From a bacterium (GTDB lineage: Bacteria > Electryoneota > Electryoneia > Electryoneales > Electryoneaceae), in assembly GCA_963669175.1 (NCBI GenBank), contig OY769902.1, positions 1,271,240 to 1,335,239 on the forward strand: a stretch of 64,000 nucleotides of DNA, in the 5' to 3' direction. The position numbers and the translations under genes are program-made. The notes beneath the pieces are model-generated. The model saw only the letters and a list, made by a program, of their open reading frames with translations, was not told the DNA's origin and made no database searches. This document shows positions 870-55,813 of the stretch, piece by piece. Position 1 is the first letter of the stretch. The number at the start of each line of letters is the position of its first letter.

Positions 870-1176
870 GGGCAATGTTGTGGCAGGTCTTGACGCGACA
901 CTCCGTTTTCGGCTTTCGCTATGTTTTCCTGAATTCACGATGATACTGAAACCGCCTCTTGCCGTGTTTTTGTCGCGTTGTGACCTGCCACCGGTATCAG
1001 CATTCTCGCCGTCGTCAGGTTACAACGTGATGCCTGATGACGATCTATCATGCGAAATAGCAGGCGTGAAGCCAGACAGATGTTTGTAATTACAGCGAGA
1101 AACAGGAAAAAGGCATCACGTCAAGACCTGACGAAACATGCTCGTCGATAGTATGCACAAATTCTTGTTAGCAGCC
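870..1176 (+). mobile_element. Family A element, copy A1 (left TIR missing)
   Basis: Aligns along its length with the reverse complement of 8139-8470. It carries box i 878-898, box ii 973-992, box iii 1013-1033, box v 1113-1133 and the right TIR ATGCACAAATTCTTGTTAGCAGCC (1153-1176). Confidence 0.85.
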
Positions 1177-3674: not shown

Positions 3675-3702
3675 CGAAGGATTGATTCTCTTATTTTTAT
3701 TG

Positions 3703-4045
3703 CTGTTCTCGATTTTATTCCGACATAATAAAGATTGCCGGGAAAAGGGGACGGGATCCTTTTCCTCGCGCGCATATGAAACACTCTCGCCGAACTTGTG
3801 GAAAAGGAAACTGTCCCCTTTTCCGTGTACGTCCTGCCTGCTCTCAAGAAAAAGGGTACAGCCACCTTTCCCGGTCCATGCTCACAGCGGGAAGGCTTTG
3901 CCCCAAGGAAAGGAAACTGTCCCCTTTTTCCATATCCTTATCCTTTATTCCAACCATATGGTTGACCTTTCACTGATCTGGCACATGACCACATGACGGA
4001 ATAATAATGGGAATCGCTATATTTAGAATAGACCACCGCCGGGCA
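3703..4045 (+). repeat. Family C element, copy C1
   Basis: Collinear with 40789-41160 and 55521-55727. Dyad boxes at 3741-3765, 3800-3824, 3848-3871 and 3907-3931. Subterminal inverted repeat TTATTCCGACAT (5' side) / ATGACGGAATAA (3' side). Ends in the CCGCCGG hairpin foot. Confidence 0.85.
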
Positions 4046-4046
4046 A

Positions 4047-4184
4047 CCGCCTTCGCAAGCTACGGCGTTTTCAAGCCGGCGGGGCCAAAGAACCGCCTTC
4101 GCAAGCTATGGCGTTTTCAAGCCGGCGGGGCCAAAGAACCGCCTTCGCAAGCTACGGCGTTTTCAAGCCGGCGGGGCCAAAGAA
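4047..4184. repeat. Tandem repeat, 46 bp x 3
   Basis: The unit CCGCCTTCGCAAGCTA(C/T)GGCGTTTTCAAGCCGGCGGGGCCAAAGAA occurs at 4047-4092, 4093-4138 and 4139-4184. It expands the simple hairpin CCGCCGG-ACAAG-CCGGCGG seen at the same position of copy C2 (41140-41158). Confidence 0.95.
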
Positions 4185-4194
4185 AGAACGCGTT

Positions 4195-4596
4195 TCACCC
4201 CAAGAGTTCCTTCACTTTGGCCAAAACCAGGTCACGGTCAATCGGTTTTTCGAAGAAACCATCCGGCTCAACAATCGTACGCCGCGTATGGATGAACTTC
4301 TTGAAATTCGGATCTTCGTATCCGGTAATGATGATGACCGGGATATTTTTGGTCGCATCATCCTCACGTAACTGTTTGTACGCCTTCACCCCGGACTGTT
4401 CCGGCATGGTAATATCCAGCGTGACCAGGTCCGGCAGGTGTTTTTTCGCCTGGGCATATGCTTCCGCCCCGGTGGATGCCTGCACCACGTTGAAGCCGTT
4501 ATCCTTGAAAAACGTTCCCAGGTATGTCAATACATCCGGCTCATCATCGACAACGAGAATTGTTTTCGGTTCACTCATGGGTTTATCCCCCGACAC
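4195..4596 (-). CDS. Response regulator, stand-alone receiver domain
   Basis: 133-aa ORF with motifs TILVVDDEPDV, DLVTLDITMPEQSG and VIIITGY. No output domain. Confidence 0.9.
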   Translation of the reverse strand: MSGDKPMSEPKTILVVDDEPDVLTYLGTFFKDNGFNVVQASTGAEAYAQAKKHLPDLVTLDITMPEQSGVKAYKQLREDDATKNIPVIIITGYEDPNFKKFIHTRRTIVEPDGFFEKPIDRDLVLAKVKELLG

Positions 4597-4697
4597 TGTA
4601 TGTCATGACACCTGCGAAGAAGCCAGCAGGCATCTTGATACTTGTTGATGTTCAGGAAAACATTCGCAGCACAAACTTCCTGTCTGAATTGTACTGG

Positions 4698-8065: not shown

Positions 8066-8566
8066 GACAGGATAATAGGGTACAAGGATGCTGATGAAGA
8101 ATTTACAGGACGAAAAGGATGCTAAGGATTATAAGGATGGCTGCTCATAAGAATTTGTGCATATTATCGACGAGCACGTTTCGTCAGGTCTTGACGTGAT
8201 GCCTTTTTCTTGTTCTTCTCCGCAATTTCAGACACCTGTCCGACTTCACCGCTGCTATTTCGCATGATAGATCGTCGTCAGGCATCACGTTGTGACCTGA
8301 CGACAGCGAGAGTGCTGATACCGGTGGCAGGTCACAACGCGACAATAACAGGACGAGAGGTGGTTTCAGTATCATGTGCATTCAGAAATACATTGCGAAA
8401 GCCGAAAACGGAATGTCGCGTCAAGACCTGCCACAACTCTGCCCGGATGCACAAATTCGTGTGAGGAACCAGTTTTTTATCCTTGATATCCTTGTTATCC
8501 TTTGCATCCTGTACATGGAACCAAGAAGCTCCCCTTGCCATCCTTCTATCCTATCATCCTGTGAGT
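8066..8566. repeat. Family D element D2 (double arms) with family A copy nested in its centre
   Basis: Forward AGGAT arrays lie at 8066-8098 and 8100-8138. The reverse arrays lie at 8474-8515 and 8533-8566. A2 occupies 8139-8470. Confidence 0.8.
8139..8470 (-). mobile_element. Family A element, copy A2 (full length)
   Basis: TIRs are GGCTGCTCATAAGAATTTGTGCAT (8139-8162) and ATGCACAAATTCGTGTGAGGAACC (8447-8470). All internal boxes are intact. No target duplication is seen. Confidence 0.9.
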
Positions 8567-10013: not shown

Positions 10014-10155
10014 AATTCACAGGATTCTCAAGAAGAATTCACAGGATGAACAGGATTTGAAGGATATCACAGGATAAAAAACGTGTTAAAGGAAAACACG
10101 TAAAAACCATTCTGTTTATCCTTGGCGTCCTTTTTTATCCTTCCCATCCTGTACA
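10014..10155. repeat. Family D element D3
   Basis: The forward arm (10014-10078) has GAATTCACAGGAT twice plus phased AGGAT. The central hairpin is ACGTGTT-AAAGGAA-AACACGT. The reverse arm is 10111-10155. Confidence 0.8.
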
Positions 10156-10172
10156 TGCTTGTTGAGGTAAAC

Positions 10173-13348: not shown

Positions 13349-13365
13349 CGAGCCGGGATTCTGTT

Positions 13366-13558
13366 GAATTTACAGGATATGCAGGATACTAAGGATGAAA
13401 AGGATCAAAACCGTACGGCCGTATGAGTCAAATAAACTGGAACTCTGTAAAGAGCGAAATCCGGGACCAACCACAGAAAGCATGTCTTTTTTTTTCGTTT
13501 ATCACTAAAAATGGTTTCATCCTGTTTATCCTTACCATCCTTTGCATCCTGTAAATAC
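13366..13558. repeat. Family D element D4 (uninterrupted reference copy)
   Basis: The forward arm is GAATTTACAGGATATGCAGGATACTAAGGATGAAAAGGAT (13366-13410). The reverse arm is 13515-13558. The ~100-nt centre is homologous to the D5 centre. Confidence 0.85.
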
Positions 13559-13634
13559 TGTCGTATCCCTTAAATACTGTTCTTTTCTTTGCGCCTTTGC
13601 GTCTTTGCGTGAAACCAGATTTAGTGCGACGATA

Positions 13635-16613: not shown

Positions 16614-16639
16614 GCCCGTCCATGCCCGGCCGGGTATCT
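16611..16639 (+). repeat. Family I hairpin
   Basis: GTAGCCCGTCCATGCCCGGCCGGGTATCT; compare 10173-10202. Confidence 0.7.
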
Positions 16640-16869
16640 GTTGAATTTACAGGATATGCAGGATACGAAGGATGAAAAGGATAAAAGCCGAAAGGCATGA
16701 GGGCTTCACGAATGAGATTCTGCCTGATTTTAAAATCCGGGACTAACCACAAATAGCATGTCCTTTATTTCGTTTATCACTAACCCGAATATTTCACCAA
16801 TGCAATTTCAAATTTGGTATTTGATGGAATGGCCAGTACAAGAACCACGGCAGTGGTTCTCTGTATTAG

Positions 16870-19103: not shown

Positions 19104-21941
19104 ATGTCACCCAACGAACCAGACAAAATTCGCATCCTTGGCGCACGCGAGCATAACCTTGCCAATATTGATGTAACCCTGCCACGCAACCGTTTGTGTG
19201 TGGTTACCGGACTGAGTGGAAGCGGGAAGTCCAGCCTGGCGTTTGATACGCTATATGCTGAAGGCCAAAGGCGTTACGTGGAGTCATTATCCGCGTATGC
19301 ACGCCAGTTCCTTGGCCTGATGGAAAAACCGGACGTGGACTTCATTGAAGGTTTGTCTCCCGCAATCTCCATCGAACAGAAGGCAACGCATCGCAATCCA
19401 CGGTCTACGGTTGCCACGGTTACCGAGATTTACGATTACTTGCGTCTGCTTTTTGCCCGGATTGGCGTTGTTCATTGTCCCAGTTGCGGCAAGCAGATCA
19501 GCAGGCAGACCGTACAGCAGATCACCGACGCCATTCTTGACTATCCTGAAGGCACACGTTTGCAGATACTCGCCCCGGTAGTGCGTGAACGCAAGGGCGA
19601 ATACCGGAAGATGTTCAAGGAGATCGAGAGGGATGGGTTTGTGCGTGTCCGGGTTGATGGAGAGGTTTACCCGGTCACCGAAACACCCACCCTGGACAAG
19701 AAGAAGAAGCATTCTGTTGATATCGTAGTTGACCGTCTGGTGGTAAAAGATGGTATCCTTACCCGTTTGACCGACAGCATTGAGACTGCGCTGGGCAAGG
19801 CGGAAGGTCTGGTTACGATGCTCACTGCAGACGGGGAAGAGAGGTTATTCAGCGAGCATTTTGCCTGTCATGATTGCGGTATATCACTGGAAGAACCGGC
19901 GCCACGAAATTTCTCTTTCAACAGCCCGTTTGGCGCCTGCCCGGTTTGTGACGGGCTGGGATTCCGTCTTGAAATCGATCCACGGCGAATCGTACCCGAT
20001 GAAAGCAAAACGATCGTAGGCGGGGCTATTGAACCGTTTGGCCTGGCGCGTGAAAGCTGGACTTTACGTATGCTGGAGAAGGTCGCCGAACATCACAAGT
20101 TCAAGCTGACCACTCCCTGGCACAAACTCCCGGAAGAACATCAGAAAACCATCCTGTACGGTTCGAAGGATAAAATCCATTTTGTCTGGGAACGATCCAA
20201 CGACAAGTACGAAGGCACGTGGGACCATTGGGGAAAATGGGAAGGTGTGATTACCAACCTGCAACGCCGTTACAAGCAGACCAATTCCCAGGGGATTCGT
20301 GACTGGATCGAGGGATTCATGGGGCAGGTACCCTGTGAGGTGTGCCATGGTCAACGCTTGCGTCCGGAAGCGTTGGCGGTGCGTGTACAGGGACTGAATA
20401 TTGCGGAAGTCAGCGCTAAATCCATCGGGCAATCTATCGAGTATTTTAACTCGCTTCAACTTTCTGAGCGTGATGCGACCATCGCCGAGCAGATCATGAA
20501 AGAGCTGAAAGCCCGGCTAGGTTTCCTGATGAATGTGGGCCTGAATTATCTGACACTGGATCGTAGTGCGGGTAGCCTGTCCGGTGGTGAAGCGCAGCGC
20601 ATCCGCCTGGCGACCCAGATCGGCAGTCAGCTTGTCGGTGTGATGTACATCCTCGATGAACCTTCCATCGGGCTGCATCAACGGGATAACGCCCGTTTGA
20701 TTACCACGCTGGAAAAGTTGCGTGACCTGGGCAACTCGGTGATCGTCGTCGAGCATGACCGTGAAACGATCGAACGTGCCGATTATGTAGTTGACCTTGG
20801 GCCAGGCGCGGGACGGCATGGCGGCAAAGTCGTCGCAGCGGGGTCACCCGATGAGATTCGCGATGATCCCAACAGCGTCACGGGAAATTTTCTGTCCGGG
20901 CGGGAAGTCATCCCGGTGCCCGAGAAACGGCGTACCCCTTCGAAACGGTGGATCACGATCAAGGGCGCACGTGGGCACAACCTGAAGAACATCGATGTCA
21001 AGTTCCCGCTCGGCTTGTTTACCGTAGTAACCGGCGTCTCAGGCTCAGGAAAAAGCACGCTGGTCAACGAGACACTTTACCCTGCGCTGGCGCGTACGCT
21101 CAATGGATCTCGTGAGGTGCCATTATCCCATAACGATATCAAAGGGCTGCACTATATCGACAAGGTTGTCGATATTGATCAGTCCCCGATTGGACGCACC
21201 CCACGTTCCAATCCGGCGACCTACACCGGGCTGTTCACGCTGATACGTGATCTGTATGCCCAGCTTCCTGATGCAAAAGCACGAGGGTACAAGTCCGGGC
21301 GCTTCAGCTTCAATGTCAAGGGCGGACGTTGTGAAGCCTGCCAGGGGGCGGGTATCATCAAGATAGAAATGCACTTCCTGCCGGATGTATATGTGACCTG
21401 TGAAACCTGCAAGGGTAAACGCTACAATCGTGAAACCCTGGAAGTGAAATACCGTGGCCGTTCCATCTCGGACGTTTTGAACATGACCGTGGAAGAAGGG
21501 TACGAGTTCTTCGAAAACCACCCGCCACTGGCACGGAAACTGAAGGTATTGAACGAAGTCGGCCTTGGTTATATCAAGCTGGGCCAGCAGGCGACAACTC
21601 TCTCCGGCGGTGAAGCGCAGCGGGTGAAATTGTCCACAGAACTTTCCAAGGTCAGCACCGGGAAGACGATCTACATTCTTGACGAGCCCACAACCGGGCT
21701 GCATTTCCAGGATATCCGGTTGTTGCTGCAAGTGCTGCATCAACTGGTGGAGAAGGGCAATACGGTGATCGTTATCGAGCACAACCTGGATGTGATCAAG
21801 ACGGCTGACTGGATCATCGATCTCGGTCCGGAAGGCGGCGATAACGGCGGGACTATTCTCGCAACCGGATCACCAGAGGATGTCATCGAGGTTCCGCAAA
21901 GTTATACCGGACAGTTCCTGAAAGAGGAGCTGAACCGGTAG
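19104..21941 (+). CDS. uvrA: Excinuclease ABC subunit A
   Basis: 945-aa ORF with two ABC modules ([25 protein letters not shown]), LSGGEAQR signatures and Cys zinc modules. Confidence 0.98.
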
Positions 21942-21950
21942 CCTTCTGCT

Positions 21951-22117
21951 GAATTTACAGGATGATCAGGATGTTAAGGATAATAAGGATAAAAACATAA
22001 AACTATATAATTATTTTTACAATACTAACAACGAATAGACTCATTAAGCATTTATGGGGTTTTCATGTTAGGTTGTTATCCTGAATATCCTTGTTATCCT
22101 TTGTATCCTGTAAATTC
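21951..22117. repeat. Family D element D6
   Basis: The forward arm is GAATTTACAGGATGATCAGGATGTTAAGGATAATAAGGATAAAAAC. The reverse arm is 22074-22117 and ends ..ATCCTGTAAATTC. The centre is AT-rich and 80 nt long. The element starts 10 nt after the uvrA stop. Confidence 0.85.
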
Positions 22118-22155
22118 GATATGATTTCATTTGATTCATGCTATTTTGAATGGGT

Positions 22156-22450: not shown

Positions 22451-22513
22451 GGTTAATGGTATAGCAGAATCTTACCCACACGAAACAGTGAGGAACCATT
22501 TCATTTGGTTCAC

Positions 22514-22547
22514 CTCGAGATCCCCGGTCAAGCCGGGGATGACATAG
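22514..22547 (+). repeat. Family H hairpin
   Basis: CTCGAGATCCCCGGTCAAGCCGGGGATGACATAG. Its 3' half seeds the adjacent tandem repeat. Confidence 0.8.
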
Positions 22548-22620
22548 AGTGCAGGGGATGACATAGAGTGCAGGGGATGACATAGAGTGCAGGGGATGAC
22601 ATAGAGTGCAGGGGATGACA
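22535..22620. repeat. Tandem repeat, 19 bp x 4.5
   Basis: The unit GGGGATGACATAGAGTGCA occurs at 22535, 22554, 22573 and 22592, with a partial unit at 22611-22620. Confidence 0.95.
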
Positions 22621-22677
22621 GTATGCGGCATTTCTTTCGACACTCAGCATAACAAATAATTTTTGCACCATCAGAAC

Positions 22678-26075: not shown

Positions 26076-26407
26076 GGCTGTTCACAAGAATTTGTGCATA
26101 TTATCGACGAGCACGTTTTGTCAGGTCTTGACGTGATGCCTTTTCTTGTTCTTCTCCGTAATTTCAGATATCTGTCCGACTTCACACCTGCTATTTCGCA
26201 TGATAGATCGTCATCAGGCGTCACGTTGTGACCTGACGACAGCGAGAGTGCTGATACCGGTGGCAGGTCACAACGCGACAATAACAGGACGAGAGGCGGT
26301 TTCAGTATCATCGTGCATTCAGGAATACATAGCGAAAGCTGAAAACGTAAAGTCGCGTCAAGAACTGCCACAACATTGCCCTGATGCACAAATTTTTGTG
26401 AGGAATT
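26076..26407 (-). mobile_element. Family A element, copy A3 (full length)
   Basis: TIRs are GGCTGTTCACAAGAATTTGTGCAT and ATGCACAAATTTTTGTGAGGAATT. The flanks are CAAAATGT / CAAAATAA (6 of 8 identical). Confidence 0.9.
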
Positions 26408-38776: not shown

Positions 38777-38870
38777 GGATTCACAGGATGAACAGGATGG
38801 TGTAAGGATGCCAGAGATAAATTGCCGGATTCACAGGATGAACAGGATAGGAAAGGATGCCAAGGATATA
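38777..38870 (+). repeat. Family D, two tandem forward arms (D7)
   Basis: GGATTCACAGGATGAACAGGAT..AAGGATGCC occurs at 38777-38815 and again at 38827-38870. No reverse arm lies nearby. Confidence 0.8.
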
Positions 38871-39998: not shown

Positions 39999-40110
39999 TA
40001 CGTTTTCCCTGGTTAGTTAGATCATCTGAAAAGATAGGCAATGCCTGCGCCGTATCCAACGTATACCCGTGACATCCGTCCAGGTCCACTTGTCCCATGC
40101 TCCAACCGGA

Positions 40111-40656
40111 TCAGGGTTCCTTGATTTTCGCGTCGATCAGCTCCAGAAGTCCGGTCATGGTCTTCTGTAACGCTTCGACCTCGCTACGTATGGACATCCA
40201 GTTGGTCAGATCACGTGCGATGACCACAGCCTGTATCGGTTTCCCGGTACGTCTTGCAATAGGAGCCGCCTTGGCACGGAACAAACGTGTCGGGCCGTTC
40301 TTTTGCGGGGCTTCCCAGGTGAACGGAACCTCGCTGTTGGAACGAATCGCGGAAACCGCCTGCCCCGATATTGTGCCAGCCTTTTTGTGATAAGGGAAAA
40401 CCTCTTCAGCTTTCTTCTCGATGATCTCTTTCTCTGATAGCCCCAATAAGGCTAAGCCACGAGGATTGACATCGAGGAAACGGCCATCCTTATCCATCAC
40501 CGCGACAAAATCTTCGTCATAGTCACGCCAAGCGTTGTAACGTGCCTGTACACCCAGCAAACGCTTCTCTGTATCCCGAAGCATCAGCACTTCACGCTTC
40601 ACATGCTGGTAATCATCCCAGAACTCGAAATCTGTCGGGTTTACCTGATCTGTCAT
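40111..40656 (-). CDS. Stand-alone PAS-domain protein
   Basis: 181-aa ORF with a PAS-like core (FVAVMDKDGRFLDVNPRGLALLGLSEKEIIEKK...IQAVVIARDLT). Confidence 0.65.
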   Translation of the reverse strand: MTDQVNPTDFEFWDDYQHVKREVLMLRDTEKRLLGVQARYNAWRDYDEDFVAVMDKDGRFLDVNPRGLALLGLSEKEIIEKKAEEVFPYHKKAGTISGQAVSAIRSNSEVPFTWEAPQKNGPTRLFRAKAAPIARRTGKPIQAVVIARDLTNWMSIRSEVEALQKTMTGLLELIDAKIKEP

Positions 40657-40788
40657 GGTGAACCTCTCTCTCTTTGGAGTTGGAAAGTTATAAAGTTACA
40701 AAGTTGAAAAGTTATTAAAAGAAAAACTGGGACTGATCTTTCGCGGTCTGTTATTCATTGATCAAAGGAAATAGAGAATAAAGACAAT

Positions 40789-41160
40789 CTGCTCTCGATT
40801 CAATTCCGTCATAATGAAGATTGCCGGGAAAAGGGGACGGGATCCTTTTCCTCGTGCTAATGCAGCATATTTCTGAACTATTCATGGAAAAGGAAACTGT
40901 CCCCTTTTCCGCGTAATTCCTGCTTGCTCCCAAGAAAAAAGGTACAGCCACCTTTCCCGGTCCATGCTCACAGCGGGAAGGCTTTACCCCAGGGAAAGGA
41001 GGCAGTCCCCTTTTTCCATATTCTTTCTCCCCATATAGTAGATCTTTCACTGATATAGAACATAACCATATGGCAGATTAATATTGGGAATCGCTACACA
41101 ACTGAAGGTGAAGCTCTTCAAATAAATTAAAATAGACCACCGCCGGACAAGCCGGCGGGG
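40789..41160 (+). repeat. Family C element, copy C2
   Basis: Dyad boxes at 40827-40851, 40886-40910, 40934-40957 and 40993-41017. It ends in the hairpin CCGCCGG-ACAAG-CCGGCGG. Confidence 0.85.
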
Positions 41161-41184
41161 CCAACAGGGAATCAATCTTCTTCG

Positions 41185-41299
41185 CAGAAATCGTAGAATA
41201 CTACAATCAGAAATCGTAGAATACTACAATCAGAAATCGTAGAATACTACAATCAGAAATCATAGAATACTACAATCAGAAATCGTAGAACACTACTAT
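41185..41299. repeat. Tandem repeat, 23 bp x 5
   Basis: The unit CAGAAATCGTAGAATACTACAAT occurs at 41185, 41208, 41231, 41254 and 41277, with degenerate continuation to about 41320. Confidence 0.95.
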
Positions 41300-41344
41300 C
41301 ACAAATCGTTGCATATCACTGTTATAAACTGTAGTCCTTCATAA

Positions 41345-41735
41345 AATGCAGTTGTATCCTGAATATCCTTTTTAGGCTGCTCACAAGAATTTTTGCATAT
41401 TATCGACGAGCACGTTTCGTCAGGTCTTGACATGATGCCTTTTCTTGTTCTTCTCCGTAATTTCAGACATCTGTCCGACTTCACACCTGCTATTTCACAT
41501 GATAGATCATCATCAGGCATCATGTTATGTCCTGACGGCAGTGAGAGTACCGATACCGGTGGCAGGTCACAACGCGACAATAACAGGGTGAGAGGTGGTT
41601 TCAGAATCATCGTGCATTCAGGAAAACATAGCGAAAGCCGAAAACGGAAAGTCGCGTCAAGACCTGCCACAACTTTGCCCGGATGCACAAATTCTTGTGA
41701 GGAACCCCTTTTTATCCTGTTCATCCTTTAAATTC
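41345..41735. repeat. Family D reverse arm (D9) split by family A copy A4
   Basis: With A4 and one duplication removed, the sequence reads ATCCTGAATATCCTTTTTATCCTGTTCATCCTTTAAATTC. This is a phased ATCCT array. Confidence 0.75.
41375..41706 (-). mobile_element. Family A element, copy A4 (full length, degenerating)
   Basis: TIRs are GGCTGCTCACAAGAATTTTTGCAT and ATGCACAAATTCTTGTGAGGAACC. An exact 8-bp direct repeat CCTTTTTA lies at 41367-41374 and 41707-41714. Boxes iii and v carry transitions. Confidence 0.9.
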
Positions 41736-41747
41736 AGCTTGTGAGTC

Positions 41748-44392: not shown

Positions 44393-44541
44393 CCCGGGTT
44401 ACGGCTGCGTTCGAAGGGGACCCACCCGGTCAAACCAGCCCGTTCGGATGATAATGTATCCAGAGTCCATTCGCAAAAGCTGAAAGCAAACAGGCTCGGC
44501 TCGCAGACTGCTCCGGAAAATGGGAAAAGCCGCTAAAATCC

Positions 44542-44796
44542 AAGTTGTGGCAGGTCTTGACGCGGCCGTTATGAATTCTCCCTGAGAGGTTTTCCATGGC
44601 AACCAAAGATGCCAATCAAATCACGAATCGCGACTACCGGTCGCGTTGTGACCTGCCACCAGCCGCTGATCCCTTTTACCGTCAGGTCACAACGTGATGC
44701 AGAGCGAATATCCATGGAGATAGCAGGCAAAATACTTGTCATACACCTGAGGATGCTGAAAGATCTCGAAATCTGCATCACGTCAAGACCTGACGG
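44542..44796 (+). repeat. Family A diverged core (A5), no TIRs
   Basis: It retains box i 44542-44563, box ii 44641-44660, box iii 44680-44700, ATAGCAGGC 44720-44728 and box v 44775-44795. The inter-box sequence is unrelated to A1-A4. Confidence 0.8.
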
Positions 44797-44803
44797 AACT
44801 TTA

Positions 44804-44844
44804 AAAAACGGGATAGACCACTTCGGGTCAGTCCCTGTTTTTCG
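44804..44844. repeat. Expanded dyad box hairpin
   Basis: AAAAAACGGGATAGACCACTTCGGGTCAGTCCCTGTTTTTC; compare 763-801. Confidence 0.75.
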
Positions 44845-44848
44845 TCAA

Positions 44849-44877
44849 TAAAAAACCCTCGACCAGTGGCCGAGGGT
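44849..44877 (-). terminator. Rho-independent terminator
   Basis: On the minus strand, CCCTCG-GCCACTGGT-CGAGGG is followed by TTTTTTATT, 22 nt after the stop at 44899. Confidence 0.7.
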
Positions 44878-44898: not shown

Positions 44899-45366
44899 CT
44901 ATTGTCTGGCGTCTTCAGGCGCCGGATTGTTTTTCTGTTCACGGATCAGTTTACCCAACCCGGCAATATCATCATAGAGTTTTTCAATAGCGGTCATGGG
45001 ATCATTCAGGTAATCTTTACGGCTCACCACATTGTCCGCGGGTTCACGTGACCCGGTTTTCCAGTGATAATAGCTGAAGGGACGTAACTGGGCCGCTTTG
45101 ATCACCGACTGACGTGTCCAGGCCTCGCCAAGCTGGGCAACACCTTCATCCATCGCACGTTCAAACAGCAAATCGGATACGATGAAGAAACCTTCCACTC
45201 GGGAACGCAAACTCGTTTCCTGATCTACTCGATCTATTGGCATTACTTTCTTCAAGTCTTCAAGGAAATCCTGTGGATCCTGTGACCCGTTTATAAAATC
45301 TTGTGCTGCAGCACGCAGTTTGTCAATCTGTTCCTGTGTCGCAAAGTAAAGTTTCTGGTCCGACAT
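44899..45366 (-). CDS. Hypothetical protein
   Basis: The track ORF runs to 45435; ATG 45366 (MSDQKLYF..) is preceded by AGGAGGAG. No family recognised. Confidence 0.6.
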   Translation of the reverse strand: MSDQKLYFATQEQIDKLRAAAQDFINGSQDPQDFLEDLKKVMPIDRVDQETSLRSRVEGFFIVSDLLFERAMDEGVAQLGEAWTRQSVIKAAQLRPFSYYHWKTGSREPADNVVSRKDYLNDPMTAIEKLYDDIAGLGKLIREQKNNPAPEDARQ

Positions 45367-45743
45367 AACTCCTCCTATTCGTATCCGGCCTGATGCCGGC
45401 GCTGCAAATGCTTCCGCCTCCTCACAAGAAGACACTTGCCGAATGAGTCAACTTGCACCTACCGGTCAAATAAGTCCTAAGGTTGATTCAATTCTATAAA
45501 GCCAGATAGTGAAGGAAATTACACAAATCAGTGGTTTTATGAGGGTTGCAATATCTCAGAATGTATGTAAGTCAAGTTAAGCAATTGTTTTTACTTGCTC
45601 TAACTCGAGTGAATAGGGCATTCAACCATCAATACTTGTTTTTCTATATCAAATATACACCACCAACAGGAGAAAACCAATCACGACTAAGGCAATACTG
45701 CGAAACTTGAGAGTAAAAAGTGCGTAATTGTTGACCGTCCACT

Positions 45744-55489: not shown

Positions 55490-55520
55490 AGAAGTCACAT
55501 ATTTCTGACTTAAAGTTTAG

Positions 55521-55727
55521 CTGTTCTCGATTTTATTCCGACATAATGGAGATTGCCGGGAAAAGGGGACGGGATCCTTTTCCTTGCGCTTATAACAGAA
55601 CATTCCTGAAGTATTCATGGAAAAGGAAACTGTCCCCTTTTTCCATATCCTTTCTTTCAACCATAGAAAGGATCTTTCACTGATATAGCACATGACCCTA
55701 TGACGGATTAATAATGGGATTCTCTAT
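55521..55727 (+). repeat. Family C element, copy C3 (internally deleted)
   Basis: Dyad boxes at 55559-55583 and 55619-55644. Both ends are collinear with C1 and C2. Confidence 0.85.
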
Positions 55728-55813
55728 ACTTCGGTGAAAATGTTGAAAATTCTGTTTGGTCGACTCGACGCCAATACAAATATTGTTACTCGCGATCAAA
55801 GACAGTTCAGTCC

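Follow-up and report, generated by a model that had tools for sequence, protein, structure and literature searches.

The A5 locus and other copies of family A

The stretch of DNA analyzed here (64 kb in its full length; hereafter, the window) contains five copies of a repeat, family A, which are found on both strands and lie 3 to 18 kb apart. One of these copies, A5, is located between alr and the upstream gene. It carries five conserved boxes, of which boxes i and ii pair in one hairpin, H1, and boxes iii and v in another, H2, each of approximately 110 nt; a short GTT/AAC stem (P1) closes both hairpins together. The region contains the following features.

44542..44801, plus strand: A5 core, consisting of P1 (AAGTT...AACTT), H1, a 19-nt linker, and H2
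44544-44564: box i, GTTGTGGCAGGTCTTGACGCG
44640-44660: box ii, GTCGCGTTGTGACCTGCCACC
44680-44700: box iii, CGTCAGGTCACAACGTGATGC
44720-44728, plus strand: box iv, ATAGCAGGC, inside the apical region of H2
44775-44795: box v, GCATCACGTCAAGACCTGACG
44547..44659, plus strand: H1 (module M1), boxes i and ii, apical region of 69 nt; outer stem GTGGCAGGTC/GACCTGCCAC, inner stem ACGCGGCCG/CGGTCGCGT
44557-44559 and 44647-44649: TTG and TGT sides of the 3x3 internal loop of H1
44679..44796, minus strand: H2 (module M2), boxes iii and v, an H1-type TTG/TGT module on the minus strand; its plus-strand reading is CCGTCAGGTC-ACA-ACGTGATGCAGA ... TCTGCATCACGT-CAA-GACCTGACGG
44596..44697, plus strand: 33-aa open reading frame (ORF) through box ii, reading SRCDLPP in the same frame as in A1 to A4
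44805..44844, no strand assigned: terminator-like hairpin T1, GGGATAGACCACTTCGGGTCAGTCCC, with A/T runs on either side
44855..44877, minus strand: intrinsic-terminator-like hairpin downstream of the hypothetical gene at 44899-45435

The other four copies are approximately 90% identical end to end when placed in a common orientation. Three of them (A2 to A4) have at both ends a 19-bp outer TIR, CTCACAAGAATTTGTGCAT.

875..1139, plus strand: A1 core, with P1 ATGTT/AACAT, H1 at 880-991, and H2 at 1012-1134
1153-1171: outer TIR of A1, present on the right side only
About 825-870 and 1183-1228: 46-bp direct repeat flanking A1
8144..8465, minus strand: A2, both outer TIRs; M1 at 8324-8434, M2 at 8181-8303
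26081..26402, minus strand: A3, both outer TIRs; M1 at 26260-26371, M2 at 26118-26239
41380..41701, minus strand: A4, both outer TIRs; M1 at 41559-41670, M2 decayed

The orientation of A2 to A4 has been corrected in this list: these copies are on the minus strand relative to A1 and A5. Direct repeats flank A1 (46 bp) and A4 (about 17 bp) and were not seen at A2 and A3; a clean target-site duplication or an empty site was not found at any of the copies.

Conservation of the boxes and of their spacing

All five boxes of A5 (the four 21-nt boxes and ATAGCAGGC) match the consensus of A1 to A4 exactly, so the preliminary description, which reported them with coordinates that were right to 1 to 2 nt, correctly recognized this set. 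Their geometry is also kept, as had been claimed: the start-to-start distances of the long boxes are 96/40/95 nt in A5 versus 95/41/100 nt in A1, and the segments between the five boxes measure 75/19/19/47 nt versus 74/20/23/48 nt. Alignments of these inter-box segments of A5 with those of A1 or A3 score at the level of shuffled sequences or barely above it (z from -1.8 to +2.2), in agreement with the reported lack of recognizable similarity; among A1 to A4, the same segments are 75 to 100% identical. The weak similarity left in segments 1 and 3 suggests that A5 is related to the other copies by common descent and is not a case of unrelated DNA captured between the boxes. The boxes and their geometry are thus conserved far more than the rest of the A5 copy, as originally proposed.

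Chance can be ruled out as the source of the box matches. The degenerate core CAGGTCWYRACG, with at most one mismatch allowed, is found 23 times in the window versus 1.8 times expected, a number seen in 0 of 100 shuffles, and 19 of the 23 matches fall within the five copies A1 to A5. Since the CAGGTC and GACCTG hexamers are enriched only about 2-fold outside the elements, identities over 21 nt could not be produced by hexamer abundance.

The four long boxes are versions of a single site in alternating orientation, which becomes clear when they are split at the core.

Box i: GTGG-CAGGTC-TTG-ACGCGAC
Box ii, reverse complement: GTGG-CAGGTC-ACA-ACGCGAC
Box iii: TCGT-CAGGTC-ACA-ACGTGATGC
Box v, reverse complement: TCGT-CAGGTC-TTG-ACGTGATGC

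This arrangement could be taken to consist of duplex-DNA sites, that is, four alternating copies of a protein site CAGGTC-N3-ACG or, in a variant of this reading, a nested invertible switch in which a recombinase pairs box i with box v (through TTG) and box ii with box iii (through ACA). The 12-bp core is indeed common to the four boxes, boxes i/v and ii/iii of the window copies form perfect 12-bp inverted repeats, and the central triplets agree inside each of these pairs. Beyond the core, however, box i resembles box ii and box iii resembles box v. No recombinase gene was found nearby, and among 7 copies, the inner segment was never encountered in both orientations with respect to the outer boxes. 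Covariation (see below) agrees with the pairing of i with ii and of iii with v and not with an i:v or ii:iii pairing, and we consider the duplex-site interpretation improbable.

A small protein of about 31 to 33 aa, translated through box ii, has even less to recommend it as the selected product and appears most improbable. An ORF of similar length and position is present in 5 of 5 copies and reads SRCDLPP from box ii, and in A5 an AGAGG sequence precedes its ATG by 7 nt. Against this, the peptides of A5 and of A1 to A4 share only the 7 residues encoded by the box, the frame at box iii differs, and the stop codons are at differing positions among A1 to A4. A search for homologues in the A5 frame found none with the 80-aa ORF at 44609-44848 as the query, which is distinct from the 33-aa ORF. 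Being otherwise unconserved, the 33-aa ORF is probably not a gene. The claim that the small ORF of the sister copies is not preserved in A5 is therefore accurate for the frame at box iii and for the other residues but not for box ii, where the frame is the same; the conclusion drawn from it, that selection does not act on a peptide, holds, as the comparison of frames and residues between A5 and A1 to A4 reveals no conserved peptide.

The description of A5 as lacking TIRs also needs to be qualified. The outer TIR CTCACAAGAATTTGTGCAT was not found near A5, but the ends of A5 itself (AAGTT plus box i and box v plus AACTT) form an inverted repeat with 17 of 21 positions matching.

Two inverted hairpin modules

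The hairpins H1 and H2 share a common plan: a 10-bp outer stem, an unpaired 3x3 internal loop, an inner stem of 6 to 12 bp, and a variable apical region. Folding of A5 on either strand yields H1 and H2 with energies well beyond those of shuffled sequences (z = -6.2 and -4.8 with RNA parameters and -5.5 with DNA parameters), A1 folds into the same two-hairpin structure, and RNAalifold recovers the architecture with P1, H1, and H2 from the unmodified sequences of A1 to A5. Folded singly, boxes i, ii, and iii are at the shuffle level (z of +0.6, -0.3, and -0.2, respectively) and box v forms a 5-bp self-stem (z = -2.3).

To look beyond the window, an H1 pattern was run against metagenome contigs and gave only two matches, L001 and L002, which are unrelated short contigs. 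The whole architecture is visible in both of them on inspection. The internal loops never vary: H1 has TTG/TGT and H2 has ACA/CAA in 12 of 12 intact modules from three unrelated sequence contexts. A scan for the module with any stem sequence found exactly nine intact modules in the window, two in L001, and one in L002, and none in five related loci or in 20 shuffles.

With these loops, H2 corresponds to an H1-type module of the opposite strand; its minus-strand reading is that of a TTG/TGT module with GTT before it. On its own strand, each module has the same order of GTT, a 10-bp stem, unpaired TTG, a 6- to 12-bp stem, the apical region, the stem, unpaired TGT, and the 10-bp stem. The element thus consists of a pair of hairpin modules that are inverted and lie on opposite strands, and the TTG/TGT modules of one element are on opposite strands in 7 of 7 elements. 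This inversion accounts for the complementarity between the H1 and H2 loops and for the second pairing scheme that the i/v and ii/iii box pairs mimic. The preliminary description had argued that the boxes have a function. The conservation behind that argument is real, but it is not that of five independent sites. Two hairpins take up four of the boxes as their arms, which replaces the five-box puzzle with a defined structure: a pair of hairpin modules in inverted orientation, each with an invariant mismatched loop.

The length of the apical region of H1 is nearly constant (67 to 69 nt in A1 to A5, 69 nt in L001, and 57 nt in L002), with near-equal lengths in A1 to A5 and L001 in the absence of sequence similarity. 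Linker lengths and H2 apical lengths vary between lineages, and the apical regions overall span 29 to 79 nt. Box iv is common to A1 to A5 only and is absent in L001 and L002. A hammerhead-like CUGAUGA...GAAA sequence in the H2 apical region of A1 to A4 is missing in A5 and was dismissed, as was a reading of the inward-facing TTGACG as a -35 box, since neither A1 nor A5 has a suitably spaced -10 sequence.

Covariation in the stems

The two pairing schemes were compared in an alignment of the stems of A1 to A5, L001, and L002, in which the apical regions were replaced by AAAAA, leaving it gap-free; the H2 register in L001 and L002 was chosen by hand from the positions of the loops. With the scheme of P1, H1, and H2, 90.7% of the cells in this seven-element alignment are paired. 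Changes on both sides are found in 17 of the 43 base pairs, a level reached in 0 of 500 shuffles, with slid controls giving no more than 4; however, as five of the seven elements come from one genome and four of these (A1 to A4) are close relatives, many of the 17 double changes represent few independent events. The independent contrasts are those of the window family versus L001 versus L002, plus that of A5 versus A1 to A4. The competing scheme, in which box i pairs with box v and box ii with box iii, shows no double change within either of its 12-bp helices and cannot be told apart from shuffles; each departure from that scheme breaks a pair, and the match is lost in L001 and L002. Thus, of the two pairing schemes that had been put forward for testing by comparative folding, covariation is seen only for i:ii with iii:v.

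Between A1 and A5, compensated changes are found at every helix edge. In P1, ATGTT/AACAT of A1 corresponds to AAGTT/AACTT of A5. The stems ACGCGACA/TGTCGCGT, GATGCCT/AGGCATC, and TCGTCAGG/CCTGACGA of A1 are likewise replaced in A5 by ACGCGGCCG/CGGTCGCGT, GATGCAGA/TCTGCATC, and CCGTCAGG/CCTGACGG, respectively. Even among the close relatives, a G-to-A change in box iii of A4 is offset by a C-to-T change in box v. L001 has GTT/AAC as its P1, CCGGCAGGTC-TTG-ACGCGAC ... GTCGCGT-TGT-GACCTGCCGG as H1, and CTGCCAGTTC-ACA-CGCCGC ... GCGGCG-CAA-GAACTGGCAG as H2, so that its stems are different and its loops (TTG/TGT and ACA/CAA) are the same. The H1 stem of L002 is identical to that of L001.

Such a pattern could arise with no selection at all if the inverted repeats were homogenized by intrastrand template switching or gene conversion, or if A5 were simply a young copy. 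The arms of a palindrome can correct each other and thereby mimic compensatory change, and single copies do decay, as indicated by the unpaired substitutions in the boxes of A3 and A4. However, homogenization would erase the 3x3 mismatch, which is invariant in 12 of 12 intact modules, and this explanation accounts neither for the box identity between A5 and A1 to A4, at different loci and with randomized inter-box segments, nor for the identical H1 stems of L001 and L002. We regard it as very improbable.

Within A1 to A4, departures from the consensus are 2.7 times fewer at box sites than elsewhere (2.7% versus 7.3% per site; p = 0.001). This lower variation fits selection on resident copies as well as differences between source lineages, and therefore does not decide between mobility and a host function.

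Dispersal of family A and searches beyond the window

A search with the reading frame of A1 to A4 as a protein query recovered three more copies, which appear as ORF fusions on the 5,447,365-bp contig to which the window belongs. In P0122, a methyltransferase domain runs to approximately residue 155 and is followed by a copy that has the left TIR. In P0001, residue 66 of an IS110-family transposase (PF01548, E = 1e-4) is the last one before the repeat; this copy lacks the left TIR and starts at the same boundary as A1. The third copy, P0123, is in a short ORF. No ORFs derived from family A in other genomes were found among 1.84 billion representatives.

Comparison with related genomes shows that the copies at alr and lysS are not shared. 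The gap between lysS and the PAS gene is 69 bp in one relative (L006) versus 1091 bp here, where it is filled by repeats that include A4, and five related metagenome-assembled genomes (MAGs) have no boxes near alr or lysS. The nearest relatives of the alr product are encoded in MAGs that include “Candidatus Electryonea clarkiae” (FCB group, candidate phylum Electryoneota). The closest of them is 87% identical, with an unrelated upstream region, and in the relatives generally, the region upstream of alr is neither syntenic nor similar.

In the window, a Pfam scan of about 40 ORFs detected ordinary genes and no transposase, recombinase, HUH, or reverse transcriptase domains; because a mobility enzyme is absent among these ORFs, the copies are considered non-autonomous. 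The H1 pattern had 0 matches in 185,579 species-representative genomes and 0 matches in viral contigs, and blastn searches with the A1 core against plasmids and with the A5 core against phages returned no match. No Rfam 15 family (of 4227) matched the A1 or A5 region at the gathering score or at E values up to 10: the best scores in these regions were 12 to 19 bits versus cutoffs of 35 to 95, and the sole match in the window was a tRNA.

These data bear on the suggestion, made when A5 was first noticed, that selection acts on the boxes and not on mobility. The part on mobility is not supported. The boxes themselves make up the terminal and subterminal inverted repeats of the core, and the hairpin architecture recurs, with unrelated loops, in the unrelated metagenome contigs L001 and L002. 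Genes of this genome are interrupted by sister copies, and relatives lack the copies at alr and lysS. Box conservation may mean only that the element requires the boxes for its own copying, with no use to the host; parts essential for copying are conserved alike, and such conservation is by itself no argument for a host function.

A host function would nevertheless be implied if A5 were a structured RNA kept by the host, either a plus-strand small RNA ended by T1 (44805-44844) or the minus-strand 5' leader of alr, with the P1/H1/H2 three-way junction as its functional fold. The strong fold with its covariation support would agree with this, as would the lower variation of the boxes even within A1 to A4, the lack of the outer TIR shell in A5, and the position of the terminator-like hairpin T1 directly after the element. 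Some G-U pairing is also tolerated on the plus strand (G.T in the inner stem of A5 H1 and T.G in box iii of A1), and in RNA, the TTG/TGT loop would be a run of U.U, U.G, and G.U. However, H2 is an opposite-strand module, so a single transcript cannot show both modules in one form, and the inverted symmetry, natural for a DNA element, has no evident reason in an RNA. The frequency of C.A mismatches, which would be read as G.U from the opposite strand, is about that of G.U pairs. Further, no promoter-like site was found upstream on the plus strand; T1, with its T/A runs on either side, lies behind a convergent gene that has its own terminator; there is no Rfam match; and the element is missing upstream of alr in 5 of 5 relatives. 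A structured RNA is, accordingly, an unlikely explanation of A5. T1 itself, terminator-like in both directions, is 88% identical to positions 764-802 beside A1.

Comparison with known systems

REPINs are among the known systems closest to family A. They consist of conserved inverted units around a less conserved spacer, with the hairpin being kept (PMC3337134, PMC3733652), and the spacers differ in sequence and are maintained in length, with dominant spacing classes of, e.g., 71 bp (PMC3337134, PMC3733652). Conserved ends, a free interior, and a kept spacer length are typical of REPINs and of MITE subfamilies in which an enzyme needs the conserved parts (PMC3337134, PMC3733652). REPINs and REP dimers are mobilized by RAYT (Y1 HUH) transposases (PMC3116915, PMC3337134, PMC3733652), some REP dimers are located within long palindromes, for which an empty palindrome was not found (PMC3337134, PMC3733652), and REP units have a conserved unpaired tag, GTAG or CGTC, at one end (PMC3733652).

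Boxes i/ii and iii/v have the REPIN features of two inverted conserved units, a length-kept spacer (classes of about 70 nt), and a long hairpin. Further similarities are a palindrome made imperfect by a built-in mismatch, heterodimers in head-to-head or tail-to-tail arrangement, intergenic and sometimes intragenic copies, and the embedding of some dimers in long palindromes. The REPIN enzyme is encoded elsewhere in the genome by a single-copy RAYT gene, which is bordered by units of the same type; no RAYT gene is found in the 64-kb window. Because identical boxes, a free interior, and a kept spacer length make up the REPIN pattern, family A can be read as REPIN-like. In contrast to REP, which is a 20- to 40-nt imperfect palindrome, the 21-nt box of family A is not itself a short palindrome, and its first four bases are paired and variable (GTGG, CCGG, CCGA, CGTC, CTGC, and CTAT), with no unpaired GTAG or CGTC tag; family A is therefore not REP in the strict sense. 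It is also a dimer of two large hairpins, each of which is the size of a REPIN.

Another parallel is provided by the attC sites of integrons and by the attP sites of CTX-type phages, which are folded single-strand hairpins with two paired boxes and an unpaired central region. In attC, structure is conserved above sequence, mismatches mark the strand that is used, and the variable terminal structure can be as short as about 3 nt or longer than 80 nt. An invariant GTT at the foot is common to attC and family A. The family A modules have an unpaired spacer (3x3) and a variable apical region (29 to 79 nt), and they lack the extrahelical bases of attC. The R''/R' pattern RYYYAAC...GTTRRRY is not matched: the foot of family A has GTT on the 5' side and AAC on the 3' side, and the neighboring bases depart from the consensus as well. 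The copies are dispersed on both strands instead of forming a same-orientation cassette array, and the window contains no intI or attI.

The ends of IS200/IS605 elements and of their ORF-less derivatives (PATEs) are subterminal imperfect hairpins that are recognized as single-stranded DNA, with no classical TIR and no regular target duplication. Both end hairpins are small and lie on the same strand, whereas family A modules are approximately 110 nt long and lie on opposite strands, and no TnpA or TnpB is seen here. MITEs (Correia, ERIC, RUP, and Nezha) resemble family A in size (250 to 320 bp), multiple and mostly intergenic copies, occasional in-frame passage of an ORF, and the 19-bp TIRs of A2 to A4. 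Unlike in MITEs, the conserved and covarying part of family A is internal and is not the TIR; A5, A1, and the P0001 copy miss one or both TIRs yet keep the core, and there is no regular short target duplication. Structured RNAs of the kind collected in Rfam share the three-way-junction-like fold with covariation but not the inverted module symmetry, which is typical of a DNA element.

Finally, the bridge or seek RNA of IS110 elements has two stem-loops with large internal guide loops and is located beside the DEDD recombinase gene in the non-coding end of IS110/IS1111. The loops of family A are only 3x3 and invariant, no recombinase gene adjoins any of the 5 copies, and the sole IS110 gene seen (P0001) is cut off at residue 66 by the element. 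The bridge RNA reading was rejected, as were those of attC and a retron. Family A thus misses defining features of REP, attC, IS200/IS605 ends, and bridge RNAs, with the attC consensus compared directly with the sequence of the modules.

A proposed mechanism

On balance, family A, including A5, is probably a non-autonomous mobile element, a hairpin dimer of the REPIN/attC-like kind. The stems, together with the ever-mismatched 3x3 loop, would serve as a cis site on folded single-stranded DNA, and the loop mismatch would mark the substrate strand. The enzyme that recognizes the modules would be encoded elsewhere; candidates are an HUH/Y1-type transposase (cf. REP/REPIN and IS200/IS605) and a recombinase of folded hairpins (cf. 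IntI on attC). For a DNA element in which both strands must present the same substrate, the symmetry of the inverted modules follows directly. The hairpins with their covariation, the invariant loops, the inverted symmetry of the modules, the dispersal in multiple copies, the insertion in genes, and the absence in relatives are observed; it is an inference that the DNA is recognized in its single-stranded form by an enzyme of one of these classes and that selection has acted through mobility instead of a host function.

Lineages that keep the stem and loop sites would continue to be copied while their apical regions drift, and such drift would give rise to subfamilies with the same boxes and spacing and with unrelated sequences in between. 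A5 would then belong to a divergent subfamily that lacks the outer palindromic shell (the “TIRs” of A2 to A4) and was inserted beside alr in this lineage, the term subfamily referring here to a single known A5-type copy.

A more specific version can be offered only tentatively. The modules might serve in cis for a strand-specific system of transposition or recombination, so far undescribed, that belongs to uncultured bacteria of the FCB group and would recognize folded single-stranded DNA hairpins of approximately 110 nt through the invariant TTG/TGT 3x3 loop and the GTT foot. Such sites would be similar to attC and REP and belong to neither family, and a co-option of A5 at the alr promoter is conceivable as well. 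If the mechanism proposed for family A is correct, the family would be a new class of REPIN/attC-like element from a candidate phylum that has received little study (relatives of “Candidatus Electryonea”), with an enzyme that recognizes unusually large folded DNA substrates.

The presence of family A also helps explain why intergenic regions are much longer here than in the relatives.

Family A copies and neighboring repeats

The window holds a second repeat family, distinct from the REPIN-like family A, that consists of palindromic elements at the following positions.

8099-8138/8471-8516, AGGAT palindrome (two arms)
10035-10156, AGGAT palindrome
13352-13565, AGGAT palindrome
16629-16696, AGGAT palindrome
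21937-22124, AGGAT palindrome
38779-38868, AGGAT palindrome

The arms carry 3 to 4 AGGAT motifs with a period of 9 bp and surround a variable center of 30 to 90 bp, in the layout GAATTTACAGGAT..CAGGAT..AAGGAT..AAGGAT ... ATCCTT..ATCCTT..ATCCTGTAAATTC. Family A copy A2 occupies the exact center of one such palindrome (arms 8099-8138/8471-8516). Copy A4 is housed in an ATCCT arm and has a direct repeat of ~17 bp on both flanks.

Around the plus-strand copies A1 and A5, both of which lack the left outer TIR, the following features were found.

764-802 and 44805-44844, T1, terminator-like hairpin GGGAYAGACCAC-NNN-GGGTCAGTCCC, flanked on each side by A/T runs
825-870 and 1183-1228, 46-bp direct repeat bracketing A1
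851-860 and 44534-44543, 10-mer TAAAATCCAA, immediately 5' of A1 and of A5

The two T1 copies in the window are identical at 35 of 40 positions; each lies no more than 70 nt from A1 or A5, albeit on opposite sides of the two elements. The 46-bp repeat around A1 contains the intrinsic terminator of the response regulator gene (1236-1745) and is far longer than usual target-site duplications. The 10-mer, of which the 64 kb contain just 3 exact copies, is found 17 nt ahead of P1, the short stem closing the family A core, in A1 and abuts P1 in A5. It may represent a target preference or a part of the element.

Three more family A copies, annotated as parts of ORFs, are found elsewhere on the 5,447,365-bp contig (in proteins P0001, P0122, and P0123). 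One of these cuts off an IS110-family transposase at residue 66 (P0001), and another follows a class I methyltransferase domain (P0122). Because these two share several substitutions, they form a sub-lineage of family A.

Other repeats and genomic context

The intergenic space 3' of lysS is 1.1 to 1.7 kb long in the window (39999-41747), compared to 69 to 238 bp in related MAGs (loci L006, 5612-5681, and L003, 4620-4858). The extra length comprises repeats and a PAS domain gene, which is absent from L003. Additional repeats in the window include the following.

3693-4022, 40779-41099, and 55511-55729, repeat of ~330-350 bp, three copies, 78-91% identical
41162-41345, tandem array of ~8 copies of the 23-mer CAGAAATCGTAGAATACTACAAT, beside A4
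22513-22626, tandem array of ~5-6 copies of the 19-mer GCAGGGGATGACATAGAGT
4045-4184, tandem array of three 46-mers

The ~330-350-bp repeat is unrelated to family A, and one of its copies adjoins A4. The 46-mer array lies within an ORF (4007-4648) that shows no Pfam match. Across the window, the hexamers CAGGTC and GACCTG are ~2-fold over-represented outside the family A elements too (36 and 27 occurrences, respectively, versus 16.5 expected from base composition).

In L002, an unrelated metagenome contig with a family A-like hairpin architecture, a palindrome, CTGTCATGTG-TCCT-CACATGACAG, lies directly upstream of the element (L002 1-90) together with a direct repeat of TGCTGTCATGTG, a placement that recalls the palindromic outer TIR in A2 to A4.
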